This document shows positions 1 through 20,778 of a stretch of DNA of 64,000 bases, in pieces (the first letter of the stretch is position 1; every line of letters begins with the position of its first letter). The notes beneath the pieces were generated by a model. The model was given only the letters and a program-made list of their open reading frames with translations, searched no databases and was not told the origin of the DNA. The position numbers were made by a program, and so were the translations under genes. This DNA comes from Phototrophicaceae bacterium (lineage in GTDB: Bacteria > Chloroflexota > Anaerolineae > Aggregatilineales > Phototrophicaceae). The stretch spans positions 207,096-271,095 of the forward strand of contig CBDCQL010000001.1 of NCBI GenBank assembly GCA_965220615.1, in the 5' to 3' direction.

Positions 1-36
1 CAAACTCGCCACGCCCATTCATGCGAATCCAAGAAT

Positions 37-1413
37 TCAAACCCGGACGCCTGCGGTGGTCAGGCGCAGCAACTGGCCCACGTCCTCCAGTTCCTCCAGG
101 TGGGCGCAGGCGTCGATGAGGGCGACGACGCCCTCTTCCGGCAGCAGATCGCCGGTCAGCTTGCGGAACTTGCCCTCGAACTCGGCAGCGCTCATCATGT
201 TTTCCGGCTCGCCACGGGCATATTCCACCCGGCCGCGGTACTGCCGGCCATCGTCCATGGTGATCCGCACCTCGCAGCCGTTCCGGCCGGCCTTTTCCAG
301 TTTCTCTTCCAGCCCCACCCTGACGCGGCGCCGCAGACGCCGCACCTGCGGGTCGTCCCAGGCCTGGATGTCCGCCTTGTAGAAGCTGCCGCGCTGCAGC
401 GTAACGGCCACGGTCACCGGCAGGCTGTAACAGGCCTGGTAGGCGTTCTCCGGTTCCGGGTCGACGCGGAAGTGAGGCGTGATCGCGTTCAGGTAGCTGT
501 CCACCTCGATGGCGGCGATGGCGTCCAGGTCGAGGTTGCCGTTGCTGTTGCGCAATGCCTGGGTGGCGTCCACGCAGGAGTGCACGTGGCGGCAACCGGC
601 GTGCGGCTTGAAGCCCGTCTCGGCCAGCGCCTGGCGCGTCCCCAGCGACTCCAGGATGGCCGGATCATATCCCGGGCCATAGGCGTGGAAGTAACCGTAG
701 GGGCCATCCAGCGCCCCGGGCGGCCCCCTGAAACCGAAGGCCGCCATGCGCGCCGCTTCAATGCCGTTGCGGGCCCCGATGCCGGAGAGCAGCGTGTCGC
801 AAACGAAGCCGTCGTAGACGTACTGCTCGGTGCCGCTGGCCATGTCCGTCGCCAGCGCCAGCGCGTTGCCGATCTGCTCCTGATCCAGGCCCATGGCAAC
901 CGCGGCCGTCACTGCGCTGGCCATCGAGCCCACGTGACTCTTGTGGTCCAGCCCGCGCTCGCGTTGCCAGTCCTTCACCGTCGGCTGTATGGCTTCGAAC
1001 ACGTCGTAGCCGACCGCCAGGGCCGTGATCAACTCGCGTCCGCTGAGTCGCAATTGTTCGCCCAGCACCAGCAGCAGGGGCACCAGCTCCGCCGCCACGT
1101 GCCCTGCCAGCCGGCTGGTGTCGTCCATGCCCAAGGCGTGGGCCATGACGCCATTGGCCAGGGCGGCGCCCTCAAGCGTGCAGGCGCGGCCGTCCGCGAT
1201 CAGCGTCGCCTCATCGCCCGGGTAATGGCGCGCGGCGAAGTCCGCCATCATCCGGCCCCGGCGCGTCCGGTAACCGCCCAGGGAGGTGCCCAAGGTGTCC
1301 AAAATCACCTGGCGGGCGCGCAGGATCGTCTTTTCGCCCAGGTCTTCGTAGCGCAGCGTCGCGGCGTGCGCAGCGATGACGTCCACAGCATTTTTCTTCG
1401 TGGCCACAGTCAT
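37..1413 (-). CDS. MmgE/PrpD family protein, paralog 1 (type B, no KDL insertion)
   Basis: ORF 37..1455. Family-typical blocks AVDVIAAHAA.LRYEDL, RARQVILDTLGTSLGG, GLDHKSHVGSMASAVTAAVAMGL, DMASGTEQYVYD, GFKPHAGCRHVHSCVDAT. Start trimmed to ATG 1413 (MTVATKK) with GAAAGG upstream. Confidence 0.85.
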   Translation of the reverse strand: MTVATKKNAVDVIAAHAATLRYEDLGEKTILRARQVILDTLGTSLGGYRTRRGRMMADFAARHYPGDEATLIADGRACTLEGAALANGVMAHALGMDDTSRLAGHVAAELVPLLLVLGEQLRLSGRELITALAVGYDVFEAIQPTVKDWQRERGLDHKSHVGSMASAVTAAVAMGLDQEQIGNALALATDMASGTEQYVYDGFVCDTLLSGIGARNGIEAARMAAFGFRGPPGALDGPYGYFHAYGPGYDPAILESLGTRQALAETGFKPHAGCRHVHSCVDATQALRNSNGNLDLDAIAAIEVDSYLNAITPHFRVDPEPENAYQACYSLPVTVAVTLQRGSFYKADIQAWDDPQVRRLRRRVRVGLEEKLEKAGRNGCEVRITMDDGRQYRGRVEYARGEPENMMSAAEFEGKFRKLTGDLLPEEGVVALIDACAHLEELEDVGQLLRLTTAGVRV

Positions 1414-1493
1414 GAGAGAGCCTTTCTGCCTCAAGCCACCTTGCGGCGGCGTCACGGGAGAGCGGCGGCGCGCCTGGCTTTCGTTGCCGCGCT

Positions 1494-2876
1494 TCAGACC
1501 CGGACCGGGGCCAGGGTCAGGCGCAGCAGGTCGCCGACGTCTTCAAGCTGTTCCAGACGCGCGCAGGCCTCCAGCAGCGCCATGATGCGCGCTTCCGGCA
1601 ACAGGTCGGCCACCAGATAGCGGAACTTGCCTTCGAATTCCTCGTCCGTCAGCATGTTTTCGGGCTCACCGCGGGCGTATTCCACGCGACCCCGGTAGCT
1701 GCCGCCGTCGCGCGTGGTGATGCGCACCTCGCAGCCGTTCCTGCCGGCGTCCTCGATATCCTGCGCCAGACCGACCTTCACCAGCTGGCGCAACTGCCGG
1801 GTCTTCGGGTCGTCCCAGGTCTCGATGTCTTCGCGGTACCAACTGCCGCGCTGCAGCACGACGGCGACCGTCACCGGCAGGCTGAAGCCCGCCTGGCCGT
1901 AGGTCGCCGGGTCCGGGTTGACGCGAAAGTCGGGCGTCACGGCGCGCAGGTAACTGTCGACCTCAATGGAGGCGATGGCGTCCAGTTCCAGACCGCCGTT
2001 TTTGCTCATCAGGTCCTGCGTGGCGTCGACGCAGGCGTGCACGTGACGGCAGCCGGCGTGCGGCTTGAAGCCCGTGCCCGCCAGACCCGCGCCCGGAGAC
2101 AAGTCCGCCAGGAAGGCCGGATCGTAGCCGGGACCGAAGGCGTGGAAGTAGCCATAGGGGCCGTCCAGCGCGCCGGGCGGGCCCTGAAAGCCGAACTCCG
2201 CCAGGCGCGCGGCGAAGATGCCGTTGCGCGCGCCGTAACCGGCCAGCAGGTCTTTCGTATCGCAGTGCCCGGCGTCGTAAACGTACTGTTCGGTGCCGCT
2301 GGCCATGTCCATCGACAGCGCCAGGGCGTTGCCGATCTGCTCCTGATTCAGACCCATGGCAACCGCCGCCGTGACGGCGCTGGCCATCGAGCCCACCTGA
2401 CTCTTGTGGTCGAGGCCGCGCTCGCGCTGCCAGTTGCGCACCGCCGGTTGCATGGCATCGAAGACGTCGTAACCGGCGGCCAGGGCCGTGATCATCTGCC
2501 GCCCGTCCAGCTGCAGTTGCTCGCCCAAGGCCAGCACGACGGGCACCAGCTCCGCGGCCACGTGGCTGGCGCGGCGGCTCGAATCGTCCATGCCGAGGAT
2601 CTTGCCCATGGTGCCGTTGGCCCAGGCGGCGCCCTCGGCCGTGCTGCCGCGGCCGTCGGCGACCAGCGTGGCCTCCTCACCCGGATAGCGTTGGGCGGCG
2701 TAGTCCGCCGTCAGGCGGCCCAAGGGCGTCTGGTAGCCGCCCAGGGTGGTGCCGATGGTATCCAGCAGCACCTGGCGGGCGCGCAGTACCGCGGTGGCGC
2801 CCAGGTCTTCATAACGCAGCTTCGCGGCGTGCGCCGCGACGATTTCAACGGCGCTGCGGCCATTGTTCGCGCTCAT
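1494..2876 (-). CDS. MmgE/PrpD family protein, paralog 2 (type A, CDTKDLLAG insertion)
   Basis: ORF 1494..2942. Same family blocks as paralog 1 (GLDHKSQVGSMASAVTAAVAMGL, MASGTEQYVYD, FKPHAGCRHVHACVDAT). Start trimmed to ATG 2876 (MSANNGRSAVEIVAAHAAK) with GAAAGG upstream. Confidence 0.85.
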   Translation of the reverse strand: MSANNGRSAVEIVAAHAAKLRYEDLGATAVLRARQVLLDTIGTTLGGYQTPLGRLTADYAAQRYPGEEATLVADGRGSTAEGAAWANGTMGKILGMDDSSRRASHVAAELVPVVLALGEQLQLDGRQMITALAAGYDVFDAMQPAVRNWQRERGLDHKSQVGSMASAVTAAVAMGLNQEQIGNALALSMDMASGTEQYVYDAGHCDTKDLLAGYGARNGIFAARLAEFGFQGPPGALDGPYGYFHAFGPGYDPAFLADLSPGAGLAGTGFKPHAGCRHVHACVDATQDLMSKNGGLELDAIASIEVDSYLRAVTPDFRVNPDPATYGQAGFSLPVTVAVVLQRGSWYREDIETWDDPKTRQLRQLVKVGLAQDIEDAGRNGCEVRITTRDGGSYRGRVEYARGEPENMLTDEEFEGKFRYLVADLLPEARIMALLEACARLEQLEDVGDLLRLTLAPVRV

Positions 2877-2999
2877 TGCCCAACCTTTCTGTCTTCGCTC
2901 GCCGTCAGGCAAGCGCATGCCTGGGGAGTGTGCGGGCGACATGATATGTCGCCCCTACATCATCAAACTCGCCACTCCCATTCCTGCGAAACGAAGAAT

Positions 3000-4370
3000 T
3001 CAAACCCTGACGGCGACGGCGCTCAGGCGCAACAGTTCGCCGACGTCGTCCAGTTCCTCAAGGCGATTGCAGGCATCGATGAGAGCGCTGACGCGGGCTT
3101 CCGGCAGCAGGTCGCCGTTGAGGTAACGCAACTTGCCTTCAAACTGTGCGGCGCTCATCATGTTTTCCGGTTCGCCGAGGGCGTATTCCACCCTGCCGCT
3201 GAACTGGCGACCGTCCGTCGTGGTGACCCGCACCTCGCAGCCATTGCTGTCGGCGGTCACCAGTTTCTCGTCCAGGCCGATCTTCACCAGACGCCGCAGA
3301 CGGCGCGTCTCGGCCTCGTCCCAGGTGTCGATGTCGTCGTTGTACCAGGTGCCACGCTGCAAAACGACGGCGACCGTGGTGGGCATGCTGAACTGGGCCT
3401 GCTCGGCAGACTCCGGCTCCGGATTGATGCGAAAGTCGGGCGTCATCGCCGAGGGATAGCTGCCGATTTCGATGGCGCTGATGGCTTCCAGTTGCAGACC
3501 CCCGTTGCTGTTACGCAGGGCCTGGGTGGCATCCACACAGGAGTGGACGTGACGGCAGCCGGCGTGCGGTTTGAAGCCCGTATCCGCCAGCCCCTGGCGC
3601 CGGCCCAGCCCTTCCAGTGCGGCCGCGTCGTAGCCCGGGCCAAAGGCGTGGAAGTAGCCGTAGGGCCCGTCCAGCGCCCCCGGCGGCCCCTGAAAGCCGA
3701 ACTCCGCCAGGCGCGCCGCAAAGATGCCGTTGCGCGCGCCGATGCCGGCCAAGGTCGTGTCGCAATCCGCGCCGTCGTAGACGTACTGCTCGGTGCCGCT
3801 GGCCATGTCCATCGCCAGCGCCAGGGCGTTGCCGATCTGCCCCTCGTCGAGGCCCATCGCCACGGCCGCCGTCACGGCGGTGGCCATGGAACCCACGTGG
3901 CTCTTGTGGTCGAGGCCGCGCTCGCGCTGCCAGTCCCGAACCACGGGTTGAATGGCGTCGAAGACATCGTAACCGACGGCCAGCGCCGTGATCAGTTCCC
4001 GACCGCTGAGCTGCAGATGCTCACCCAGCGCCAGCACGGCCGGCACCAGCTGCGAGGCCACGTGCCCGGAAAGGCGGCTGGTGTCGTCCATCTCAAGCAG
4101 ATGGCAGAGGACGCCGTTGGCCCAGGCCGCGCCCTCGACGCTGCTGCTACGGCCGTCGACGGCGATCGTCGCCTCCTCGCCCGGCATCCGCAGCGCGGCG
4201 TAGTCCGCCGTCATCCGACCCAGGTCCGTCTGGTAGCCGCCCAGCGAGGTGCCCAGGGTATCCAGAATCACCTGACGCGCGCGCGTGACGGTCGTCTCGC
4301 TGAGGTCCTCGTAGCGCAGCTTCGCGGCGTGCGCGGCAATAATCTCCACGGCATTTTTGTTTTTGCTCAT
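3000..4370 (-). CDS. MmgE/PrpD family protein, paralog 3 (type B)
   Basis: ORF 3000..4370, MSKNKNAVEIIAAHAAKLRYEDL. Shares HKSHVGSM, ALRNSNG and PENMMSAA states with paralog 1. GAGAGGG lies upstream of the ATG. Confidence 0.85.
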   Translation of the reverse strand: MSKNKNAVEIIAAHAAKLRYEDLSETTVTRARQVILDTLGTSLGGYQTDLGRMTADYAALRMPGEEATIAVDGRSSSVEGAAWANGVLCHLLEMDDTSRLSGHVASQLVPAVLALGEHLQLSGRELITALAVGYDVFDAIQPVVRDWQRERGLDHKSHVGSMATAVTAAVAMGLDEGQIGNALALAMDMASGTEQYVYDGADCDTTLAGIGARNGIFAARLAEFGFQGPPGALDGPYGYFHAFGPGYDAAALEGLGRRQGLADTGFKPHAGCRHVHSCVDATQALRNSNGGLQLEAISAIEIGSYPSAMTPDFRINPEPESAEQAQFSMPTTVAVVLQRGTWYNDDIDTWDEAETRRLRRLVKIGLDEKLVTADSNGCEVRVTTTDGRQFSGRVEYALGEPENMMSAAQFEGKLRYLNGDLLPEARVSALIDACNRLEELDDVGELLRLSAVAVRV

Positions 4371-4465
4371 CAGTCAATGACCCTCTCTGCCTGAATTTAG
4401 CTGGCAGGGCGCGCCGCCGCGGACAGCCCGCGACGGACGCGCTCTTTTGTCTCAAATGACCCTTC

Positions 4466-5848
4466 TCAAGCCCTGATCCTGGCGGAGGCCAGACTCAGCA
4501 ACTCGCCGACGTCGTCCAGTTCCTCAAGGCGGGCACAGGAATCGAGCAGGCCGACGATTTGCTCCTCGGGCAGCAGGTCCCCGACGAGATAGCGGAACTT
4601 GCCCTCGAACTCCGCGTCGCTCAACATGTTTTCCGGCTCGCCGAGGGCGTAAGCCACCTCGCTGCTGTACTGTTTGCCATCGCGCGTGTTGATGCGCAGC
4701 TTGCAGCCGTTTCCGCCGGAGTTCTCCAGTTCCTCGTCCAGCTCAACCTTGACCAGACGCCGCAGATGGCGCGTCATGGGCTCGTCCCAGGTCTCGATAT
4801 CCGTGCGGTACCAGGCGCCGCGCTGCAGGACGACGGCGACGGTCACCGGCAGGCTGAAACCCGCCTGGCCGGTTGTCTCCGGTTCGGGATCGATGCGGAA
4901 GAAGGGGTTGATCGCCTCGTAATAGCTGCCGATCTCGATCGAGGTGATGGCCTCAAGGTCCAGACCGCCGTTGCTGCGCACCAGCGCCTGGGTCGCATCG
5001 ACGCAGGAGTGCACGTGGCGGCAACCGGCGTGCGGCTTGAAGCCCGTCTCCGCCAGGCCGCCGCGCTTCCCCAGGACCTCCAGGTAGGCCGGGTCGTAAC
5101 CCGGGCCAAAGGCGTGGAAGTAACCATACTCACCGTCCAGGGCGCCGGGCGGGCCCTGGAAGCCGAATTCGGCCATGCGCGCCGCCATGATGCCGTTGCG
5201 CGCGCCCAGCCCGGCCAGCAGGTCCTTGGTGTCGCAGTAACCGGCGTCCCAGACGTACTGTTCGGTGCCGCTGGCCATGTCCATCGCAAGGGCCAGCGCC
5301 TGGCCGATCAGCTCCTCACTCAGCCCCATGGCGACCGCCGCCGTGACGGCGCTGGCCATCGAGCCCACCTGACTCTTGTGGTCCAGGCCGCGCTCGCGCT
5401 GCCAGTCCCGCACCCAGGGCTGAATGGCGTCGAAGACGTCGTAGCCCACGGCCATCGCAGTGATCAGGTCGCGACCGGCCAGATTCAGATGCTCGCCGAG
5501 GGCCAGCACGACCGGCGCCAGTTCCGAGGCCACGTGCCCCGAAAGACGGCTGGTGTCGTCCATGCCCAGGAACTTGCACATGGTGCCGTTGGCCCAGGCC
5601 GCGCCCTCGGCGTTGCTGCTGCGCCCGTCGGCGATGATCGTCGATTCCTCACCCGGCATGCGGTGCGCGGCGTATTCCGCCGCCAGCCGGCCCAGACGCG
5701 TCTGGTAGCCGCCCAGGGCGGTGCCGATCGTGTCCAGAATCACCTGACGGGCGCGGATGATCGCCGTCTCGCTCAGGTCCTCATAGCGCAGGTTGGCGGC
5801 GTGCGCGGCGATGACGTCCACGGCATTGCGACCATTACTCGTGCTCAT
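4466..5848 (-). CDS. MmgE/PrpD family protein, paralog 4 (type A)
   Basis: ORF 4466..5854. Shares HKSQVGSM, CDTKDLLAG and PENMLSDAE states with paralog 2. ATG 5848 (MSTSNGRNAVDV) with GAGAGG 8 nt upstream is preferred over TTG 5854. Confidence 0.85.
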   Translation of the reverse strand: MSTSNGRNAVDVIAAHAANLRYEDLSETAIIRARQVILDTIGTALGGYQTRLGRLAAEYAAHRMPGEESTIIADGRSSNAEGAAWANGTMCKFLGMDDTSRLSGHVASELAPVVLALGEHLNLAGRDLITAMAVGYDVFDAIQPWVRDWQRERGLDHKSQVGSMASAVTAAVAMGLSEELIGQALALAMDMASGTEQYVWDAGYCDTKDLLAGLGARNGIMAARMAEFGFQGPPGALDGEYGYFHAFGPGYDPAYLEVLGKRGGLAETGFKPHAGCRHVHSCVDATQALVRSNGGLDLEAITSIEIGSYYEAINPFFRIDPEPETTGQAGFSLPVTVAVVLQRGAWYRTDIETWDEPMTRHLRRLVKVELDEELENSGGNGCKLRINTRDGKQYSSEVAYALGEPENMLSDAEFEGKFRYLVGDLLPEEQIVGLLDSCARLEELDDVGELLSLASARIRA

Positions 5849-5878
5849 AATCAAAACCTCTCTACTCTCGGCCCGCTG

Positions 5879-7060
5879 TCACTGGCGCAGCAGGGCACGT
5901 AACTCCCGGGTGACGTGATCGATATCCTCACGCGTAAATTCCTGCGTCACGGGCAGGGTCAACAAGCGGTCGGCCAGGCAGTCGGTGACCGGCAGCCTGG
6001 CGGCGTTGGGCAGGCCGTGGCGATAGACCTCGTAGTGGTGCACCGGGGGCGTGTAGTGCAGCGCCGCCTCGACGCCGGCGGCGCGCAAGCCATGGTAACA
6101 CTCCTGCTGGTTGTCGACGCCGATAGTGAAGGAACGAAAAGTGGGTTCGGATTCGGGACGGAAGGTCGGCAAGGTCGCCGGGATGCCGGCCAGGCCCTCG
6201 CGGTACCACTGGACGATCTCCCGTCGCTGCTGCGTCCAATGGCGCAGATACGGCAACTTGACGTGCAAAACGGCGGCCTGCAGGCCATCCAGCGAGAGAT
6301 TGTAGCCCTCGTCGATGGCGTACTGCCGGCCCGGAATCTCCGCTTCCCAGTCCTCGCTGCGGCCGGCGCCGTAGGCGGTCAGCAGGCGCAACTTCTCGTG
6401 CACCTGCGGCTCGCTGGTCGCCACCGCCGCGCCACTGCCGACGCCGCCGAAGGGCTTGTAGGGCGCGAAACTGAAGACGACGGCATCGGCGAACACGCCG
6501 ACGCTGCGGCCATAATCGCGCGCGCCGGTGGCGAGGCAGGCATCCTCGACGATCATCAGGCCATGGCGGTCGGCGATCTCGCGCAGGCGCTTCACGTCGG
6601 CGGGGTGGCCGTGCATGTCGACCGGCAGCAGGGCGCGGCTGCGATCGCTGATCAGGGGCTCCACGAGGTCCGGGTCCATGTTGTAGTCGCTGGCGCGCAG
6701 GTCGCAGAGGACGGGCGTGGCGCCGCAGTTGCTGATCGCCGCCGTGGTGGAAATATCGGAATTGGCGACCGTGATGACCTCGTCGCCGGGGCCCACGCCG
6801 CAGGCGCGCAGGGCCAGAAAGAGGCCGCAGGTGCCGGAGTGCACGCCCACCGCCCAAGTCTGCTCCACTTCGGCAGCGAAGGCTTCCTCGAAGTCCTTGC
6901 GGGCGCGATAGCTGCTGTCGTTGGCGCTGAAGAGCATCGGTTCCAGCGCGGCCAGGATCTCCTCGCGCAGGGCCTGATGGGTGAGGTAGTTGCGCGAGCG
7001 CGGGATGGCGAAGCGGCCCTGTTCGGCGTAAATCCGTTCTTCCTGTGAAAGTGTGACCAT
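5879..7060 (-). CDS. DegT/DnrJ/EryC1/StrS-family PLP-dependent aminotransferase
   Basis: ORF 5879..7129. Motifs AVGVHSGTCGLFLALRA, DEVITVANSDISTTAAI, MIVEDACLATGA and VVFSFAPYKPFG (Lys-bearing PLP motif). Start trimmed to ATG 7060 (MVTLSQ) behind AGGAGG; the longer ORF would overlap the upstream permease stop at 7080. Confidence 0.8.
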   Translation of the reverse strand: MVTLSQEERIYAEQGRFAIPRSRNYLTHQALREEILAALEPMLFSANDSSYRARKDFEEAFAAEVEQTWAVGVHSGTCGLFLALRACGVGPGDEVITVANSDISTTAAISNCGATPVLCDLRASDYNMDPDLVEPLISDRSRALLPVDMHGHPADVKRLREIADRHGLMIVEDACLATGARDYGRSVGVFADAVVFSFAPYKPFGGVGSGAAVATSEPQVHEKLRLLTAYGAGRSEDWEAEIPGRQYAIDEGYNLSLDGLQAAVLHVKLPYLRHWTQQRREIVQWYREGLAGIPATLPTFRPESEPTFRSFTIGVDNQQECYHGLRAAGVEAALHYTPPVHHYEVYRHGLPNAARLPVTDCLADRLLTLPVTQEFTREDIDHVTRELRALLRQ

Positions 7061-7079
7061 GGGCGCCTCCTGTACCCGC

Positions 7080-8015
7080 TCAGTCGCGGCCACGCACGTT
7101 GGGGTCGAGCGAATCGCGCAGCCAGTCACCGAGGAAGACCACGCCCAGCACGGTGATGGTGATGGCGATGCCCGGGTAGGCCGTCATCCACCAGGCGCTG
7201 TTGATCACCGACTTGCCGTCCGCCAGCTGGATTCCCCAGGTCACCGTGGGCGGCTTGACGCCCAGGCCCAGGAAACTGAGTGAGGACTCGGCGAGCATGG
7301 TGATGCCGACCTGCAGCGCGGCCAGCACGATGGCCGAGGCGATCACGTTCGGCAGGATGTGATGCAGCACGACCCAAAGCGGCCGCTGGCCGATGGACCA
7401 GGCCGCCAGGACGTAATCGTTTTCGCGCGCCTTGAGCACCTCGCCACGGATCACGCGCGCGTAGGTCACCCAGCCCGAGAGGCCGAGAATCAGAATCAGC
7501 GTGACGAGGCCCGGCCCGACGATGCCCGAGATCGCCACGACGCGGATCACGAAGGGAATGCTGAGCATGGCGTCGCAGATGCGCATCATGAAGCCGTCGA
7601 CGCGCCCGCCAAGAAAGCCGCTGGTCAGGCCATACAATACGCCGATGGTGCCGGCGATCATGACCGCCACCACGCCTACCAGCACCGACACGCGACTGCC
7701 GACCAGAATGCGGCTGAAGATATCGCGCCCCAGCTGGTCTGTGCCCAGCAGATGAGTCGCCCCGTCGTCGCCCGTGAAGCCGGGCGGTTTGTAGCGGGTG
7801 CGCAGGTTGCCGCGGATCGGATCGTGGGGAACGATGTAGGGACTGATCAGCGCCAACACAATGACCAGGGAAATGATGCCCGTCCCGATCAGTCCGATGG
7901 GACTGCGCCGCAGCAGCGACAGCAGCGAAGGCTGGCGCGAATGACCGGTGACCAGAGTCGCCACCTCGCCTTCGGACTGTGCGGAAGCGGCAGGCTCGCC
8001 GGGCCCTGTGCTCAT
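7080..8015 (-). CDS. ABC transporter permease, DppC/OppC-like (peptide/nickel type)
   Basis: ORF 7080..8057. Polytopic membrane protein with LLGTDQLGRDIFSRIL and a BPD-transport signature region (AWSIGQRPLWVVLHHILPN). ATG 8015 is preceded by GGAGGC and follows the upstream stop at 8032. Confidence 0.8.
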   Translation of the reverse strand: MSTGPGEPAASAQSEGEVATLVTGHSRQPSLLSLLRRSPIGLIGTGIISLVIVLALISPYIVPHDPIRGNLRTRYKPPGFTGDDGATHLLGTDQLGRDIFSRILVGSRVSVLVGVVAVMIAGTIGVLYGLTSGFLGGRVDGFMMRICDAMLSIPFVIRVVAISGIVGPGLVTLILILGLSGWVTYARVIRGEVLKARENDYVLAAWSIGQRPLWVVLHHILPNVIASAIVLAALQVGITMLAESSLSFLGLGVKPPTVTWGIQLADGKSVINSAWWMTAYPGIAITITVLGVVFLGDWLRDSLDPNVRGRD

Positions 8016-13657: not shown

Positions 13658-14632
13658 TCATGCGCTCGCCACCTGATCGCCCAGAATCACCAGCACGGTG
13701 TCCTCCGGCGGGACCGGCCAGGACAGACCGCCGTGCAGCATGATGCCGGCGCGCGGTGCGCGGATCGTTTCCAGGCGCTCGCCGGTGAAGGGGTGACGCA
13801 CGTAGCCGACCTCCTCGCCCTCGGCGATCATCTGGCCGCGCTTGCCGGTATCGATGAAGGTGAAGCCGCGCTCACCGGTGGGCATCAGGGTCGTGTGCCC
13901 CTCGATCACGGCGACCTCGTCGCACTCACGTGTCACGTCGCCGTCCGTCATTCCCAAATGGGCCATGGCGTTCAAAATCGCGTTGCGGATGCGCGCCATG
14001 TCGTCCTCGCGATAGTCGCGCAGGCCCGGCCCGCCACCGATGTAGGCGGCCACCGACGCGACGCCGTCCTCGGCCGCGGCCTCCGCCATCGAGTCGTCGG
14101 AGGGCATGTTGTTCAGCACGTGCGGCAGCCCGAGGGACACCGCCAAAGCCTGGGACTTGCCGGCGTTGCCGGACTGCCAGCAACCCGCGTAGCGATGATA
14201 GCTGAACTGCGAACCGGTGCGAATGTCGATCAGCGCGTCCGCGCCGGCGATGGCGCCCTGGTACCAGGCGTGAATCATCTGCTCGCTGACGCTGCCGACG
14301 GCGGAACCGCGTCCGAGCCGGTTGAGGTGCTTCTCGTCCCAGGCGCTGGTGATTTGCTCAAAATCGAAACCGGAGGTGTTCATCAAGGGCACGATGACCA
14401 CCGTCCCGCGGATGTTGGCCGGGTCCAGTTCCTGCGCGACCTTCGGCAAAATCAGCGCGGGCTCGATCTCCATGCCGCTGGTGCCCGACTGCACGATGAG
14501 CCGGGGACCGGGTTGCGCGCCATTAATGATGTGCAGCGGGATGTGCACCGGAAAGCGTCCGTGCGTCTCCCCTGTCTTGAAAAAGCCAAAGGTCTTTTCG
14601 CCCTGGCCGGCTTCCACTGTTCCAAGTTTCAT
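13658..14632 (-). CDS. AstE/AspA (succinylglutamate desuccinylase/aspartoacylase, M14-like) family protein, degenerate metal site
   Basis: ORF 13658..14632. Family N-terminus MKLGTVEAGQGEKTFGFFKTGETHGRFPVHIPLHIINGAQPGPRLIVQSG. The HxxE zinc motif reads SGMEIE and the downstream His position reads IDIRTG (compare DFHAG and NIHSG in the paralogs). Confidence 0.75.
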   Translation of the reverse strand: MKLGTVEAGQGEKTFGFFKTGETHGRFPVHIPLHIINGAQPGPRLIVQSGTSGMEIEPALILPKVAQELDPANIRGTVVIVPLMNTSGFDFEQITSAWDEKHLNRLGRGSAVGSVSEQMIHAWYQGAIAGADALIDIRTGSQFSYHRYAGCWQSGNAGKSQALAVSLGLPHVLNNMPSDDSMAEAAAEDGVASVAAYIGGGPGLRDYREDDMARIRNAILNAMAHLGMTDGDVTRECDEVAVIEGHTTLMPTGERGFTFIDTGKRGQMIAEGEEVGYVRHPFTGERLETIRAPRAGIMLHGGLSWPVPPEDTVLVILGDQVASA

Positions 14633-15762: not shown

Positions 15763-17688
15763 CTATGGAACCGGTGCCAGATACCTCAGAAACCAGTCCC
15801 GAATGCGGTGCAGGCGCTCGATGCGATTGCCCGGTCGCCCGCTGGTGGATAGCCCGTGGTTTTCTCCTTCAAAGATGACCAGTTCGACCGGCCGGCGGCG
15901 CCAGCGCAGCGCCCCGTAGAGCTGCTCGGCCTGTTCCAGACTGGTGCGATGGTCCTGGTCGCTGTGGATGATCAGCAGCGGCGTGTGGCAGTCGTCCATG
16001 TAGGCGATGGGCGACTGGCGCCAGTCGTCCTCCGGCGTCGTCCAGCGCTCCGGCCCGATGTCGGAGGTGCCGAAGTGGCTGAGGTTGTTGGTGATCGAGC
16101 GCTGGGCGACGGCCGCGGCGAAACGGTCCGTGTGGCCCACGATCCAGTTGGTCATGAAGCCGCCGCAGCTGCCGCCGGTCACGCCCATGCGCTCGCCGTC
16201 GATCCAGGGATGGCGCCGCAGCAGGTCGTCCACGCCCAGCATGGTCTCGCGGTAGTCCGCGCCGCCCTGGTCACCCTGGCTGGCCCAGGTCCACTCCTGA
16301 CCGTAGCCGGCGGTCGTGCCACGCTGGTTGAAGTAGGCCACGGCGAAACCCGAGTTGGCGTAGATCTGGTGCTCGTGGTTGAAGTCCTGGCAGAACATCG
16401 AGCAGTGCACGTAGAGCACCAGGGGATAGCGGCGCTGAGGGTCGAAATCCAGCGGCCGAATCAACCAAGAATGAATCGGCACGCCATCCAGGCCTTCGTA
16501 TTCGTAGCTTTCCGGCTGTGACAGCCGCAGGTCGCGCAGCCAGGGGTTGAGGTCGGTCAGACACTCGCTGCGGCCGGCGCGCCAGAGGACCAGTTCGCCC
16601 GGGCTGGACGGGCTGGCCACTCCGCAGGCGACGAGGTCGCCGACGGCCGGGCTGTACTGAAAGACCGTGCTCTCGCCACGGATCAGGCGCTCGCTGCGGC
16701 CGTCGACGTCACCGCGCCAGAGGTTGGCCGCGCCGCGCTCGGTCAACTGGAAGTAGAACCAGCGATCGCCGTGCGCCCATTTGACGGATACGTTGGCCAG
16801 CCCCGGCCGCTGGTCGGAGACACCGTAGTTGCCGACTTCCGCGTCGAGCGCCTCGTCCAGTTCGGCGGCGGTGCCGGCCTCCACATCGGCGACGCAGGGA
16901 TGCCAGTGATTGCGACGGTTCACCGGCGGCGCATGGTTGTGGCCGGCGAAAGCGATGTGGCGGTCGTCGTTGCCCCAGGCCGGGCTGACGGCCGAGCCCT
17001 GCCAACCCGGCAGCAGGGGGCGCGGCGCCGGGCCGGGCGGCCAGTCGCAGAGGTAGATCTGGCCCTGACCCGCCGGGATGTCCTGCTCGCGCGCAGTGGC
17101 GACGAAGGCCAGACGCGTGCCGTCCAGGCTCCAGGCCGGTTCCGAGTAATCGCACTCGCTGTGCGTGACTTGCTGCAAGTCGCCCGTGACCGCGTTAATC
17201 ACGACGATCTGCTGGTAGCGATCGTGCACCCAGCCGAGGCCGTCGCGCTTGTAACGCAGGCGCCGGATCACCTTGATGGTCGGCGCGGGCACGCCTGGTT
17301 GCGGACCGCGGCGTTCCAGCGGGTGCCGCATCGGGGTCCAGCGCGCCGCCGCCAGATGGATGCCATCCGGCGCCCAGTCCAACCCGCCGACCGGCTCGTC
17401 GCCCAGCGGAATGTTCCGCTCCGTTCCATCTGCGAGGCGCAGGATGCGCAGGGAGTTGCCATCGGCGTCCTGCTGATTCCAGGCGAGTTGCGCGCCGTCG
17501 CGGCTCCAGGCCAGGGAAGAGGCGCGGCTGGCGCCGGCCGTCAAACGTTGTGCGGCGCTATCCTCCAGGTGACGCAAATACAGGTGAATGCGGTAGCCGT
17601 TGGTCTCGCCGTCCGGCGCGCGCAGGCTGTAGGCGACGCGGCTGCCATCCGGCGCGAGGGCAATCTCCTCCAGCCAGCGGAAGTTCAT
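15763..17688 (-). CDS. S9-family serine peptidase (acylaminoacyl-peptidase / dipeptidyl-peptidase type) with N-terminal beta-propeller, paralog 1
   Basis: ORF 15763..17688. Catalytic-triad context GVTGGSCGGFMTNW, IIHSDQDHRT, FEGENHGL. The N-terminal half has WD/TolB-like propeller repeats (LAWSRDG, LDWAPDG, PAWSLDG, PAWGNDD). Confidence 0.85.
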   Translation of the reverse strand: MNFRWLEEIALAPDGSRVAYSLRAPDGETNGYRIHLYLRHLEDSAAQRLTAGASRASSLAWSRDGAQLAWNQQDADGNSLRILRLADGTERNIPLGDEPVGGLDWAPDGIHLAAARWTPMRHPLERRGPQPGVPAPTIKVIRRLRYKRDGLGWVHDRYQQIVVINAVTGDLQQVTHSECDYSEPAWSLDGTRLAFVATAREQDIPAGQGQIYLCDWPPGPAPRPLLPGWQGSAVSPAWGNDDRHIAFAGHNHAPPVNRRNHWHPCVADVEAGTAAELDEALDAEVGNYGVSDQRPGLANVSVKWAHGDRWFYFQLTERGAANLWRGDVDGRSERLIRGESTVFQYSPAVGDLVACGVASPSSPGELVLWRAGRSECLTDLNPWLRDLRLSQPESYEYEGLDGVPIHSWLIRPLDFDPQRRYPLVLYVHCSMFCQDFNHEHQIYANSGFAVAYFNQRGTTAGYGQEWTWASQGDQGGADYRETMLGVDDLLRRHPWIDGERMGVTGGSCGGFMTNWIVGHTDRFAAAVAQRSITNNLSHFGTSDIGPERWTTPEDDWRQSPIAYMDDCHTPLLIIHSDQDHRTSLEQAEQLYGALRWRRRPVELVIFEGENHGLSTSGRPGNRIERLHRIRDWFLRYLAPVP

Positions 17689-17764: not shown

Positions 17765-19753
17765 TTACAGGTACTTCAGAAACCAGTCCTGAATGCGATG
17801 GATGCGCTCGATGCGGTTGCCCGGCCGGCCGCCGCGCGAAAGGCCGTGGTCCTCGCCCTCAAAGATGACCATCTCCACCGTCTTGCCGTACCAGCGCAGG
17901 GCGGCGAAGAGTTGCTCGGCCTGCTCCAGGTCGGTGCGATGGTCGGCGTCACTGTGGATGATCAGCATGGGCGCGTTGAAGTCCTTCGCGTAGGCCACGG
18001 GCGACTGGCGCCAGACCTCCATCAGGTCTTCCCAGGGTTCCGCGCCGGTCTCGCCGCTGCTGCACTCCGGGCCGATATCCGAGGTGCCGAACATGCTGAT
18101 GTTGTTGACGATGGAGCGCTGGGCCACGGTAGCGGCGAAGCGCTCCGAATGGCCGGCGATCCAGTTGGTCAGGTAACCGCCGCAGCTGCCGCCGGTGGCG
18201 CCCATGCGTTCCCCGTCGATCCAGGGATGTTTGCGCAGCAGGTCGTCGACGCCCAACATGATTTCCTCGTAGTCCGCGCCGCCCTGGTCGCCCTCGGTGG
18301 CCTTCGTCCAGGCTTGGCCGTAACCGGCGGTGGTGCCGCGCTGGTTGAAGTAGGCCACGGCAAAGCCCGAGTTGGCGTAGACCTGGAACTCGTGGTTGAA
18401 GTCCCAGCAGAACATGGAGCAGTGCAGGTAGAGAATGAGGGGGTAACTGCCCTGCGGGTCGTAATCCAGCGGGCGAATGAGCCAGGCGTGCACCGGCACG
18501 CCGTCCACGCCCTCGAACTCGTAACTCTCCGGCAGCGAAAGACTGACGTCGCGCAGCCAGGGGTTGAGGTCGGTCAGGCGCTCGCTGTCGCCGTCGCGCC
18601 AAATATACAGGTCGCCCGGGCTGGAGGGATCGGCCATGCCGTAGGCTGCCAGGTCGCCGCAGGCGGGGCTGTATTCGAAATGCGTGCACTCGCCCCGCAG
18701 CAGCCGTTCGGACGCGCCTTGCGCGTCGATGCGCCAGAGGTTGGCCGCGCCGCGCTCGGTCAGCAGGAAGTAGATCCACCTGTCGCCCGGCGCCCACTTG
18801 ACCGTGACGTTGGTCAGACTGACGCGCTGGTCGGCGACGCCGTAGTTGCCGACCTCCTCGTCGATGTCCTCGTCCAGCTTGACCGCCGTACCGGCGGCCA
18901 CGTCGGCGAGGTGCGGCTGCCAGAAGTTGCGGCGATTGGTCGGCGGCGGATGGTTGTGGCCGGCGAAGGCGATGTAGCGATCATCGGCGCCCCAGGCCGG
19001 ACTGACGGCCGTGCCCTGCCAGTCGGGCAGGAGCGGGCGCGGCCCTTCCCCGCCCGGCCAGTCACAGAGGTAGATGTGTCCCTGGCCCTCGGGGATGTTC
19101 TGTTCGCGCGCCGTGCCGACGAAGGCCAGGCGCGAGCCGTCTCCGCTCCATTTCGGCGTCTCGTAGTCGCTCTCGCTGTGGGTCACCTGGTCGAGGTCGC
19201 CGGTGACGGTATCCAGCACGAAAATCTGGGAATAACGATCGTGCACCCAGCCGATGCCGTCCCGCTTGTAACGCAGGCGCCGCACCACCTTGATGTGCGG
19301 CTGCGGCATGTCCGGCAGAGGTCCGCGGTCTTCATGCGGATGTCGCAACACGGTCCAGCGCGCGCCCGCCAGATGGACTCCGTCCGGCGACCAGTCGAGG
19401 CCGCCGAGGGGCTCGGCGCCCAGGGGGATGACGTGGCGTCGGGCCTCCGCCACCTGCCAGATGCACACAGAACAACCATCGGCCGTGCTGTGGCTCCAGG
19501 CCAGTTGCGCACTGTCGCGGCTCCAGGCCAGCGACGAGACGCGGCAGGCGCCACTGGTCAGGCGGCGCGCGCTGCCACCATCCAGGCGGCGCAGATAGAG
19601 GTGCGCGCGGTAGCCATCAGCCTCGCCGTCCGGTTCGCGCACGCTGTAGGCCACCATGTTGCCATCCGGCGCGAGGACAATTTCCTCCAGCCAGCGGAAG
19701 TTCATCAGATCTTCGGGGATGAGGCCGCGACGTCTTTCTGCCGTGTTTTCCAT
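17765..19753 (-). CDS. S9-family serine peptidase, paralog 2
   Basis: ORF 17765..19831. Start taken at ATG 19753 (MENTAERRRGLIPEDLMNFRWLEE); ATG 19765 is also possible. Contains GATGGSCGGYLTNW, IIHSDADHRT, FEGEDHGL. About 70 percent identical by eye to paralog 1. Confidence 0.85.
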   Translation of the reverse strand: MENTAERRRGLIPEDLMNFRWLEEIVLAPDGNMVAYSVREPDGEADGYRAHLYLRRLDGGSARRLTSGACRVSSLAWSRDSAQLAWSHSTADGCSVCIWQVAEARRHVIPLGAEPLGGLDWSPDGVHLAGARWTVLRHPHEDRGPLPDMPQPHIKVVRRLRYKRDGIGWVHDRYSQIFVLDTVTGDLDQVTHSESDYETPKWSGDGSRLAFVGTAREQNIPEGQGHIYLCDWPGGEGPRPLLPDWQGTAVSPAWGADDRYIAFAGHNHPPPTNRRNFWQPHLADVAAGTAVKLDEDIDEEVGNYGVADQRVSLTNVTVKWAPGDRWIYFLLTERGAANLWRIDAQGASERLLRGECTHFEYSPACGDLAAYGMADPSSPGDLYIWRDGDSERLTDLNPWLRDVSLSLPESYEFEGVDGVPVHAWLIRPLDYDPQGSYPLILYLHCSMFCWDFNHEFQVYANSGFAVAYFNQRGTTAGYGQAWTKATEGDQGGADYEEIMLGVDDLLRKHPWIDGERMGATGGSCGGYLTNWIAGHSERFAATVAQRSIVNNISMFGTSDIGPECSSGETGAEPWEDLMEVWRQSPVAYAKDFNAPMLIIHSDADHRTDLEQAEQLFAALRWYGKTVEMVIFEGEDHGLSRGGRPGNRIERIHRIQDWFLKYL

Positions 19754-19782
19754 GTCAACCCCCATAGCCGATTGTTCCGCGC

Positions 19783-20778
19783 TCAGGTCAGGCTGGTGAC
19801 TGTCTCCTCCACCACGCCGAAGAAACAACACCAGTGTCCTTCCAGCACCGAAGGACGTGAGCGCATGCCAAAGATGAGGCCATCCTGCGGCGCGTTGACT
19901 GTGGCGATGACATCGCCGTAGAGATCGTAGATCGAGCCAATGAGCGTCCCGGCGGGGACGAGGGTCTCAAAGGGCAGTTCCGGGTTGCCGACGTACATGC
20001 CGGTGGCCGGCGCCAGCAGGGGAATCTGGTAGCCCGTATGCCAGCGCTCCTCGTAGCTCGCTTCACCGTCGATCATGTCGTAGTGACGCAGGACGTTCAG
20101 GTAGCCCTCCGCCAGATCATTGGCGATGCCGTGGAAATCCGCGCCCAGCGTGCGGCAGTTGCCGCCCAGCTCGACGGTGATACCGGCGCGGCCGTCCGCC
20201 GCGATCTGCGAGGAGGGGTTGGCGCCGCCCGTGCCGCTGCGGAAGACCAGCGGCCAGCCGGAGCCCATGGCCGCCGCCAGTTCCATGCTGGCCGGGTTGT
20301 CCGAAGCGAAGATCATGTGCGCCAGGTAGGAATGCTCACCACCGGAATGGATGTTGATCTGCAGGTCGCAGCAATCCTTCATCGCCAGCCAGTGGGCGTA
20401 AGCGCCGCGCTCGGTCGGGTAGCCGTCGGGCTTGCCGGGATAGAGCCGATTCATGTCGTAGGCGAAGCCGTCCAGGGGATCGCCGCGGGTGCCGGCCGTG
20501 AAGGCCGGTACGTTCATCACCGGCACGGCGACAATCGTGCCGCGCAATTGCTGTGCGTCCACCTGCTCCAGCGTTCGAAAGATGGAGAAGGGGCCTTCGG
20601 GCTCGTCGCCGTGCGTCGCCCCGTTCAGCCAGAGCACCGGGCCGTCGCCGGCGCCGCGCATCACAATCAGGGGGATCTCCCGCTCGCGCGGGAACATGTC
20701 CGGGTTGACGGGAATGCCGCCACGCGCGGTCTCGCCCGGCATCACACTCACGTTGCCAAATTTCATTGCCTGTGTCAC
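19783..20778 (-). CDS. AstE/AspA family deacylase-like zinc hydrolase
   Basis: ORF 19783..20778. MKFGNVSVMPGETARGGIPV..., canonical NGATHGDEPEG and LQINIHSGGEHSY. Confidence 0.8.
   Translation of the reverse strand: MTQAMKFGNVSVMPGETARGGIPVNPDMFPREREIPLIVMRGAGDGPVLWLNGATHGDEPEGPFSIFRTLEQVDAQQLRGTIVAVPVMNVPAFTAGTRGDPLDGFAYDMNRLYPGKPDGYPTERGAYAHWLAMKDCCDLQINIHSGGEHSYLAHMIFASDNPASMELAAAMGSGWPLVFRSGTGGANPSSQIAADGRAGITVELGGNCRTLGADFHGIANDLAEGYLNVLRHYDMIDGEASYEERWHTGYQIPLLAPATGMYVGNPELPFETLVPAGTLIGSIYDLYGDVIATVNAPQDGLIFGMRSRPSVLEGHWCCFFGVVEETVTSLT

Follow-up and report, generated by a model that had tools for sequence, protein, structure and literature searches.

To our knowledge, just four or five reactions are known for the large MmgE/PrpD superfamily. 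One of its members, the iminodisuccinate (IDS) epimerase of Agrobacterium tumefaciens, has Tyr145 and His99 as the proposed acid/base pair. The superfamily occurs in ∼19% of prokaryote species, a catalytic set is shared among its enzymes (H85, D88, H99, H150, K198 and K266, in IDS numbering), and the mechanism proposed for the whole family acts on 1,4-dicarboxylate substrates through an enolate stabilized by conserved lysines (PMC12290011). The cis-aconitate decarboxylase (CAD; ACOD1/IRG1/CadA) is a homodimer whose active-site residues (D93, T97, H103, H159, K207, K272, H277 and Y318) lie inside one subunit, and the solved relatives are built likewise; four of these residues (D93, H103, K207 and K272) show strict conservation across CAD, IDS epimerase and MmgE, and hCAD mutated at H103 or at K207 forms no itaconate (PMC6789909). 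Literature searches returned no paper combining MmgE, PrpD and Anaerolineae, none on the subfamily described here, and nothing on heteromeric or tandem PrpD enzymes. Here we describe a five-gene array of MmgE/PrpD-family genes in a Phototrophicaceae bacterium (assembly GCA_965220615.1). Four of the genes lie at the start of a 64,000-nt stretch of contig CBDCQL010000001.1 (G000:C1:207096-271095; hereafter the window), and the array arose by expansion of a single gene in the ancestor of one genus.

The genes were numbered p1 to p5 in the transcription order of the array, and all are on the minus strand. The four tandem copies of the preliminary description were recovered as open reading frames: p1 (4466..5848, 460 aa), which is the first gene of the array, p2 (3000..4370, 456 aa), p3 (1494..2876, 460 aa) and p4 (37..1413, 458 aa). 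Both Pfam domains, MmgE_PrpD_N (PF03972; 151–166 bits, E 1e-44 to 1e-48) and MmgE_PrpD_C (PF19305; 79–94 bits with a cut-off of 32.1), scored above the gathering threshold in each of them. The array had been predicted to continue beyond the window, and it does so by exactly one copy, p5 (G000:C1:205564-206940, equal to L001:13469-14845), which lies 155 nt beyond window position 1. A genome-wide tblastn search (3.2 Mb, E ≤ 1e-5) detected these five copies and no other. Pairwise identity of the four window copies was 70–74%, and p5 was 72–75% identical to those four.

The array was present in all 11 other species of the genus, with four or five copies in each, in independent assemblies that include several single-contig chromosomes. 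Gene order and flanks were the same in the 10 other arrays compared gene by gene, where orthologs at the same position were 84–98% identical and copies at different positions 68–78% identical. Maximum-likelihood analysis of 53 array and 16 outgroup proteins placed all array copies in one clade (support 100/100) against the single-copy outgroups, and within it the whole-gene alignment separated five positional orthogroups, each with support of at least 99/99 (100/100 for p1); with the tree without active-site columns counted as well, the support was at least 99/98. The ratio of nonsynonymous to synonymous substitution rates (dN/dS) within orthogroups was 0.12–0.21 (0.12 for p1, 0.18 for p2, 0.19 for p4 and 0.21 for p5), and all five copies are under purifying selection.

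The nearest proteins outside the genus were 43–70% identical. The gene was single copy at 41 of the 41 loci inspected there (mostly Anaerolineae/Chloroflexota metagenome-assembled genomes (MAGs), with ±6 kb of flank), and wherever both motifs could be read the protein carried KxxG together with TKD, the combination referred to below as type B. In a class-wide sample of 400 genomes, with four candidates scored per genome, 6 had a close homolog, one each. Since the gene is single copy at all 41 outside loci, the array is a genus-specific 1-to-5 expansion, dating to the ancestor of a single genus of uncultured Anaerolineae; the five copies were distinct before this genus diversified and have been retained as separate genes from then on.

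The preliminary description had sorted the copies into two sequence types placed alternately, and this arrangement held: along the operon the types run B-A-B-A-B, and the alternation recurs in 9 of the 10 other arrays compared. The strings offered as diagnostic were all present in the copies; HKSH and HKSQ, nevertheless, are not fixed genus-wide (p5, Q in seven and H in three species; p4, H in eight and Q in three; p2, H in ten and Q in one). Just three type differences are fixed across the genus, namely the two-residue indel after CDT, a K-to-H replacement at H85 and L409M (PENML to PENMM). To place them, the proteins were mapped onto IDS epimerase (2HP3) and hCAD (6R6U) by HMMER alignments. 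The CDTKDLLAG segment, described before as an insertion, aligned with the family motif T-K-P, and its lysine corresponds to IDS K198 and hCAD K207. The segment is ancestral, and its absence is a derived deletion that removes the key lysine.

At the positions of IDS H85, D88, H99, H150, K198 and K266, the outgroups, p1, p3 and p5 (type B) have K, G, H, D (followed by H), K and K. In type A the residues are H, G, H, D, deleted and K for p4 (HxxG, Lys-Asp of the TK motif deleted), and H, E, H, D, deleted and K for p2 (HxxE, with the same deletion). These states are fixed in 10/10 or 11/11 species per orthogroup. The family lysine is missing from 22 of the 22 A-type sequences, and its deletion is coupled with the gain of His at H85, plus Glu at D88 in p2. 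The catalytic His (H99/H103), the DD pair and the second lysine (K266/K272) are common to both types; among A-type proteins the H99 equivalent, the DD pair, R149, D154-H155 and the K266 equivalent are all invariant. Already at the level of the subfamily the canonical site is altered, with K/G in place of H85/D88, an Arg at IDS Y145 (within an invariant WQRERG) and Asp-His at H150. From the canonical set, H99 and K266 alone are kept in all copies.

An AlphaFold model of p2 (predicted local distance difference test score 91.5, predicted template modeling score 0.92) has the two-domain superfamily fold, with template modeling (TM) scores of 0.75–0.84 to CAD, IDS epimerase, the Bacillus subtilis protein termed IRG1, and PrpD. 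By sequence the subfamily is about equally far (17–24% identity) from every characterized member. Of the solved structures, IDS epimerase (2HP0/2HP3) came closest in sequence (E 2e-26, ∼23% identity), and it has the same two-domain fold (TM 0.79–0.82); every copy retains its H99, DD pair and K266, type B retains K198 as well, and its substrate, an N-substituted aspartate-like 1,4-dicarboxylate, would suit a cluster dealing with peptides or N-acyl amino acids. In contrast to IDS epimerase, H85 is replaced by K (H in type A), D88 by G (E in p2), Y145 by R and H150 by D-H, K198 is missing in type A, there is no C-N lyase partner, and the genomic context differs. With Arg at Y145 and Asp at H150, the array proteins do not have the full set of residues that marks an IDS epimerase.

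CAD (6R6U, 6R6T) has the same fold (TM 0.76–0.82, 23–24% identity) and is a homodimer with its active site between the two domains of one subunit; the equivalents of its H103 and K272 are kept here. Asp stands in place of H159, however, and Gly (Glu in p2) in place of D93, type A has deleted the counterpart of K207, and there is no tricarboxylic acid cycle or itaconate context; judged on D93, H103, H159, K207 and K272, the CAD active site is not reproduced. The 2-methylcitrate dehydratases PrpD/MmgE (1SZQ, 5MUX, 6S62) share the Pfam domains and fold at 17–21% identity. Assignment to PrpD (EC 4.2.1.79) failed on the NCBIfam equivalog models, with scores of 20–48 bits vs. cut-offs of 458 and 950, and prpB, prpC or acnD did not turn up among the annotated neighboring genes. 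The (S)-(R)-methylsuccinate isomerase of the itaconate cluster belongs to the same superfamily, its His88/Glu91 are matched by the H-x-x-E of p2, and an enolate mechanism on a 1,4-dicarboxylate has been proposed for it; unlike type A it keeps both lysines (K202 and K266), and it is encoded by a single gene beside a methylsuccinyl-CoA dehydrogenase gene, almost only in Pseudomonadota (PMC12290011).

The order of the duplications was approached by polarizing derived states column by column with the outgroup and by comparing trees of the whole gene and of its parts. All five copies share 12 derived states. p2 and p4 share six to seven (positions 92, 160, 202, 208, 209, 214 and 409), including the two-residue deletion; p2 and p5 share three to four (positions 327–386); p3 and p5 share none at strict thresholds and two at looser ones (positions 91 and 93); and p1 and p3 share none. 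Type B is defined by ancestral states alone and never forms a clade. The whole-gene tree was (p3,(p1,(p5,(p2,p4)))), with support of 99/87, 85/47 and 80/56. When the first 30 residues and 40 columns around the two active-site segments were removed, the tree became (p3,((p1,p4),(p2,p5))), with support of 91/83 for p1+p4 and 97/93 for p2+p5. The middle third grouped p2 with p4 (97 by the Shimodaira-Hasegawa-like approximate likelihood ratio test), and the C-terminal third grouped p2 with p5 (96) and p1 with p4 (82). In all five trees (whole gene, without active-site columns, and three partitions) p3 was basal, and in none of them were p1 and p3 sisters.

In approximately unbiased (AU) tests, holding p1 and p3 together on the whole gene cost 6.9 log-likelihood units (p = 0.048). 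Holding p2 and p4 together gave p = 0.14 without the active-site columns and p = 0.06 on the C-terminal third, and p2 with p5 on the middle third gave p = 0.23, so that none of the conflicts between partition trees was significant by AU. Internal branches measured 0.014–0.04 vs. 0.08–0.15 for the orthogroup stems. We infer that the duplications came in a short burst, and these data do not allow their order to be recovered. Later recombination or conversion among the copies is suggested, though not proved, by the conflict between the signals, and the A-type middle segment may have spread from one copy to the other.

A recent exchange of this kind is seen in the spacers. The preliminary description had noted that nucleotides 1–36, which are the first 36 of the 191 nt of the p4-p5 spacer (the remainder is outside the window), resemble nucleotides 2964–2999 of the p2-p3 spacer (2877..2999, 123 nt), and had taken the match as a sign of a type-A gene just outside. 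The match was reproduced (32/36 positions, 88.9%) and a gene does lie there, but it is of type B (KxxG and TKD). The two spacers share 84 nt at 96% identity and the further 36 nt at 89%, and the similarity extends into the first ∼25 nt of coding sequence. In the other 10 species the spacers at these places are 53–63 nt long (60–63 nt for the p2-p3 spacer where p3 is kept), the match is absent, and the start of p5 is unlike that of p3. Since the similarity is confined to this genome, and the shared 84 nt are 96% identical compared with ∼78% in coding sequence, the match is a recent, lineage-specific conversion from the region upstream of p3, with the p2-p3 spacer as the probable donor, to that upstream of p5. 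A relic of unit duplication was considered as the source of the match and ruled out, as the match is missing from the other 10 species.

The shared segment holds a palindrome, GTAGGGGCGACATATCATGTCGCCC (window 2934-2958; also at G000:C1:206996), which belongs to a dispersed family resembling repetitive extragenic palindromes. With up to three mismatches, 46 copies were counted on the 687-kb contig C1 (67 per Mb) and 13 on the 2.5-Mb contig C2 (5 per Mb), and from this skew C1 may be a replicon or region of its own. A further palindromic module, GGGCGGGCGATTTGATAAATCGTC, also with many copies, lies in the p4-p5 spacer.

Two species of the genus have four genes. In one (G004), a 337-nt spacer (L017 6887-7223) holds what is left of p3, ∼95 codons with a frameshift, and the order is B-A-A-B. 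In the other (G002), the fourth gene (L015 8854-10218) is p4-like for most of its length but has a p5-like C-terminal tail, the product that p4-p5 recombination would give, and the MR/MLE gene comes immediately after it. Each of these species keeps two A and two B sites, and no species has lost an A site.

From these comparisons the copies are probably diverged isozymes, encoded by a five-gene array that was expanded from one gene. They would act as separate, probably homodimeric, enzymes with enolate-type chemistry (epimerization, dehydration or decarboxylation), the copies differing in which member or stereoisomer they take from a set of 1,4-dicarboxylate intermediates that resemble succinate or aspartate. 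The source of such intermediates may be imported peptides or N-acyl amino acids, and the neighboring MR/MLE enzyme would act together with the isozymes. With two positive charges fewer in its pocket, type A may accept a substrate that is less anionic, or may catalyze another step. That the A-type enzymes are active is favored by the invariance of the other pocket residues, by the gain of His and Glu at canonical positions and by dN/dS values that do not exceed that of p5. Several points weigh against the isozyme reading: (i) the subfamily is already non-canonical, so that mechanisms can be carried over from CAD and IDS epimerase only by analogy; (ii) loss of the K207 equivalent abolishes hCAD activity, and type A could by the same token be non-catalytic; (iii) a zinc-ligand-less AstE paralog lies in the same cluster, and catalytically dead partner subunits may be a theme of it; (iv) independent isozymes do not explain the strict B-A-B-A-B alternation; and (v) the AU tests do not clearly separate the possible duplication orders (p 0.048–0.23).

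The preliminary description had read the alternation as an ancestral heterologous A-B pair that was duplicated as a unit and kept as a hetero-oligomer or for two successive steps. The alternation in 9 of 10 other arrays (the exception being the one that lost p3), the seven derived states shared by the A copies with their two-residue deletion, the sister relation of p2 and p4 in the whole-gene tree (80/56) and the middle third (97), and the retention of two A and two B sites by both four-copy species all agree with it. A tree resolving both pairs was expected, and unit duplication fails where one is not obtained: p2 and p4 pair weakly on the whole gene and p1 and p3 in no tree, these two share no derived state, and their pairing is disfavored at p = 0.048. 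Moreover, outside the genus a single B-type gene alone is found, at all 41 loci; without the active-site columns p2 joins p5 and p1 joins p4; the spacer homology cited for the pair is a conversion in this genome only; the copy number, five, is odd; and G004 has the order B-A-A-B. With the p1+p3 pairing unsupported and the ancestor a single gene, we set this history aside as improbable. Simple dosage amplification, which had already been rejected in the preliminary description, or an assembly artifact of a repeated gene would fit the tandem placement of copies of one family; against either, the copies are just 70–75% identical, an ortholog of each one occurs in 11 other assemblies, among them several single-contig chromosomes, and the active-site differences are fixed, so that we regard both as very improbable indeed.

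Alternatively, whatever the duplication history, the A copies could be pseudoenzymes, that is, non-catalytic structural or regulatory partners of B subunits. The loss of hCAD activity on K207 mutation (PMC6789909), the absence of that lysine from all 22 A-type sequences, the AstE paralog without Zn ligands in the same cluster and the strict alternation of types speak for such a role. On the other hand, every other conserved pocket residue of type A is invariant, the His (with Glu in p2) gained at canonical H85/D88 looks like remodeling and not decay, A-type dN/dS (0.18–0.19) is no higher than that of the B-type p5 (0.21), and no heteromeric MmgE/PrpD enzyme is described in PMC6789909 or PMC12290011. 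We therefore hold the pseudoenzyme explanation to be doubtful. Taking it together with the A-B pair, some form of A-B hetero-oligomer is unlikely. The strongest version, in which the lysine-less A proteins are obligate partners of B proteins and the alternating operon encodes the first heteromeric MmgE/PrpD enzymes, is a speculative proposal that we think improbable as it stands. If it were true, a remodeled and possibly non-catalytic subunit would alter the substrate range or stereochemical outcome of its partner, and the zinc-less AstE paralog beside intact paralogs would be a parallel case.

The array as such is a lineage-specific enzyme expansion of an ordinary sort, a neat example of enzymes diversifying and not a new type of system. 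What is specific to it is the documented 1-to-5 expansion, the non-canonical pocket of the subfamily and the deletion of the family lysine fixed in two copies. It offers a natural experiment, in which the single-copy ancestral form is still present in sister genera and five descendants have been conserved for the lifetime of the genus. The five proteins could reveal how the fold shifts specificity or chemistry, and whether the conserved lysine is dispensable. The locus also marks an uncharacterized catabolic cluster that recurs in mostly Anaerolineae MAGs and comprises an importer, peptidases, deacylases, an MR/MLE epimerase and a PrpD-like enzyme.

Ribosome-binding sites are present in the intercistronic spacers, some of which also hold stable hairpins. 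The p1-p2 spacer (4371..4465, minus strand) has a ribosome-binding site, no terminator-like site, and a GC-rich hairpin, GCGCGTCCGTCGCGG...CCGCGGCGGCGCGC, with a minimum free energy of −42.3 kcal/mol (z −3.27); the spacer sequence is kept in other species of the genus, and the hairpin may serve mRNA processing or stability within the operon. The p3-p4 spacer (1414..1493, minus strand) has a ribosome-binding site and folds no better than shuffled sequences (z −0.29). A gene for a DegT/DnrJ/EryC1-family aminotransferase (5879..7129, minus strand; likely start ATG at 7060) is directly upstream of the array, across a 30-nt gap. A scan of positions 1–7200 for sigma-70-like promoter and intrinsic-terminator patterns found none, and because of this, together with the ribosome-binding sites in the spacers, co-transcription is likely.

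The array sits inside a minus-strand cluster of ∼24 kb. In order, this holds two class-I/II aminotransferase genes, Ldh_2, three AstE/AspA-type deacylase genes, two S9 peptidase genes, an M24 peptidase gene, two SBP5 binding-protein genes, two ABC permease genes, DegT, the five PrpD-like genes, MR/MLE and the RraA-like gene. The MR/MLE enolase-superfamily gene starts ∼25 nt after p5 and is followed by the RraA-like gene. In searches of PDB sequences, the nearest solved relatives of the MR/MLE product were L-Ala-D/L-Glu epimerase, dipeptide epimerases and N-acylamino-acid racemase; such searches with the MR/MLE, RraA-like, M24 and Ldh_2 neighbors identified no pathway, and NCBIfam gave no equivalog for the PrpD copies or most neighbors. 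The 2-methylcitrate, itaconate, ectoine and hydroxyproline pathways were weighed from the neighboring families, and none had its defining gene set here.

The same cluster was found in the three outgroup contexts inspected, where a lone PrpD-like gene lies 3–6 nt upstream of the MR/MLE gene; a gap of this size in other genera suggests translational coupling and a functional pair. The DegT-type aminotransferase family is also present in the outgroup clusters. In two of the outside loci (L029:10001-12469 and L030:10001-12472) the gene order is M24-PrpD-MR/MLE-SBP5-permeases-DegT, unlike that of this genus, and no RraA-like gene was seen within 10 kb of the single-copy PrpD-like genes there. The RraA-like gene of the present genome (L001:11569-12321, G000:C1:203664-204416) has a close solved relative in 5x15, a "putative transferase" (E 8e-68), and matches CHA aldolase/oxaloacetate decarboxylase less strongly.

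One of the three AstE/AspA-type paralogs (window 13658-14632) shows SGME in the alignment where its two neighbors show the HGxE metal motif, and has Arg in place of the downstream ligand His, so that the Zn ligands are absent. The tandem S9 (prolyl-oligopeptidase-family) genes (window 15763-17688 and 17765-19831) encode proteins 72% identical over 646 residues. There is one S9 gene in the outgroup clusters inspected vs. two in this genus, which suggests that the expansion took in the whole cluster, beyond the PrpD-like genes.

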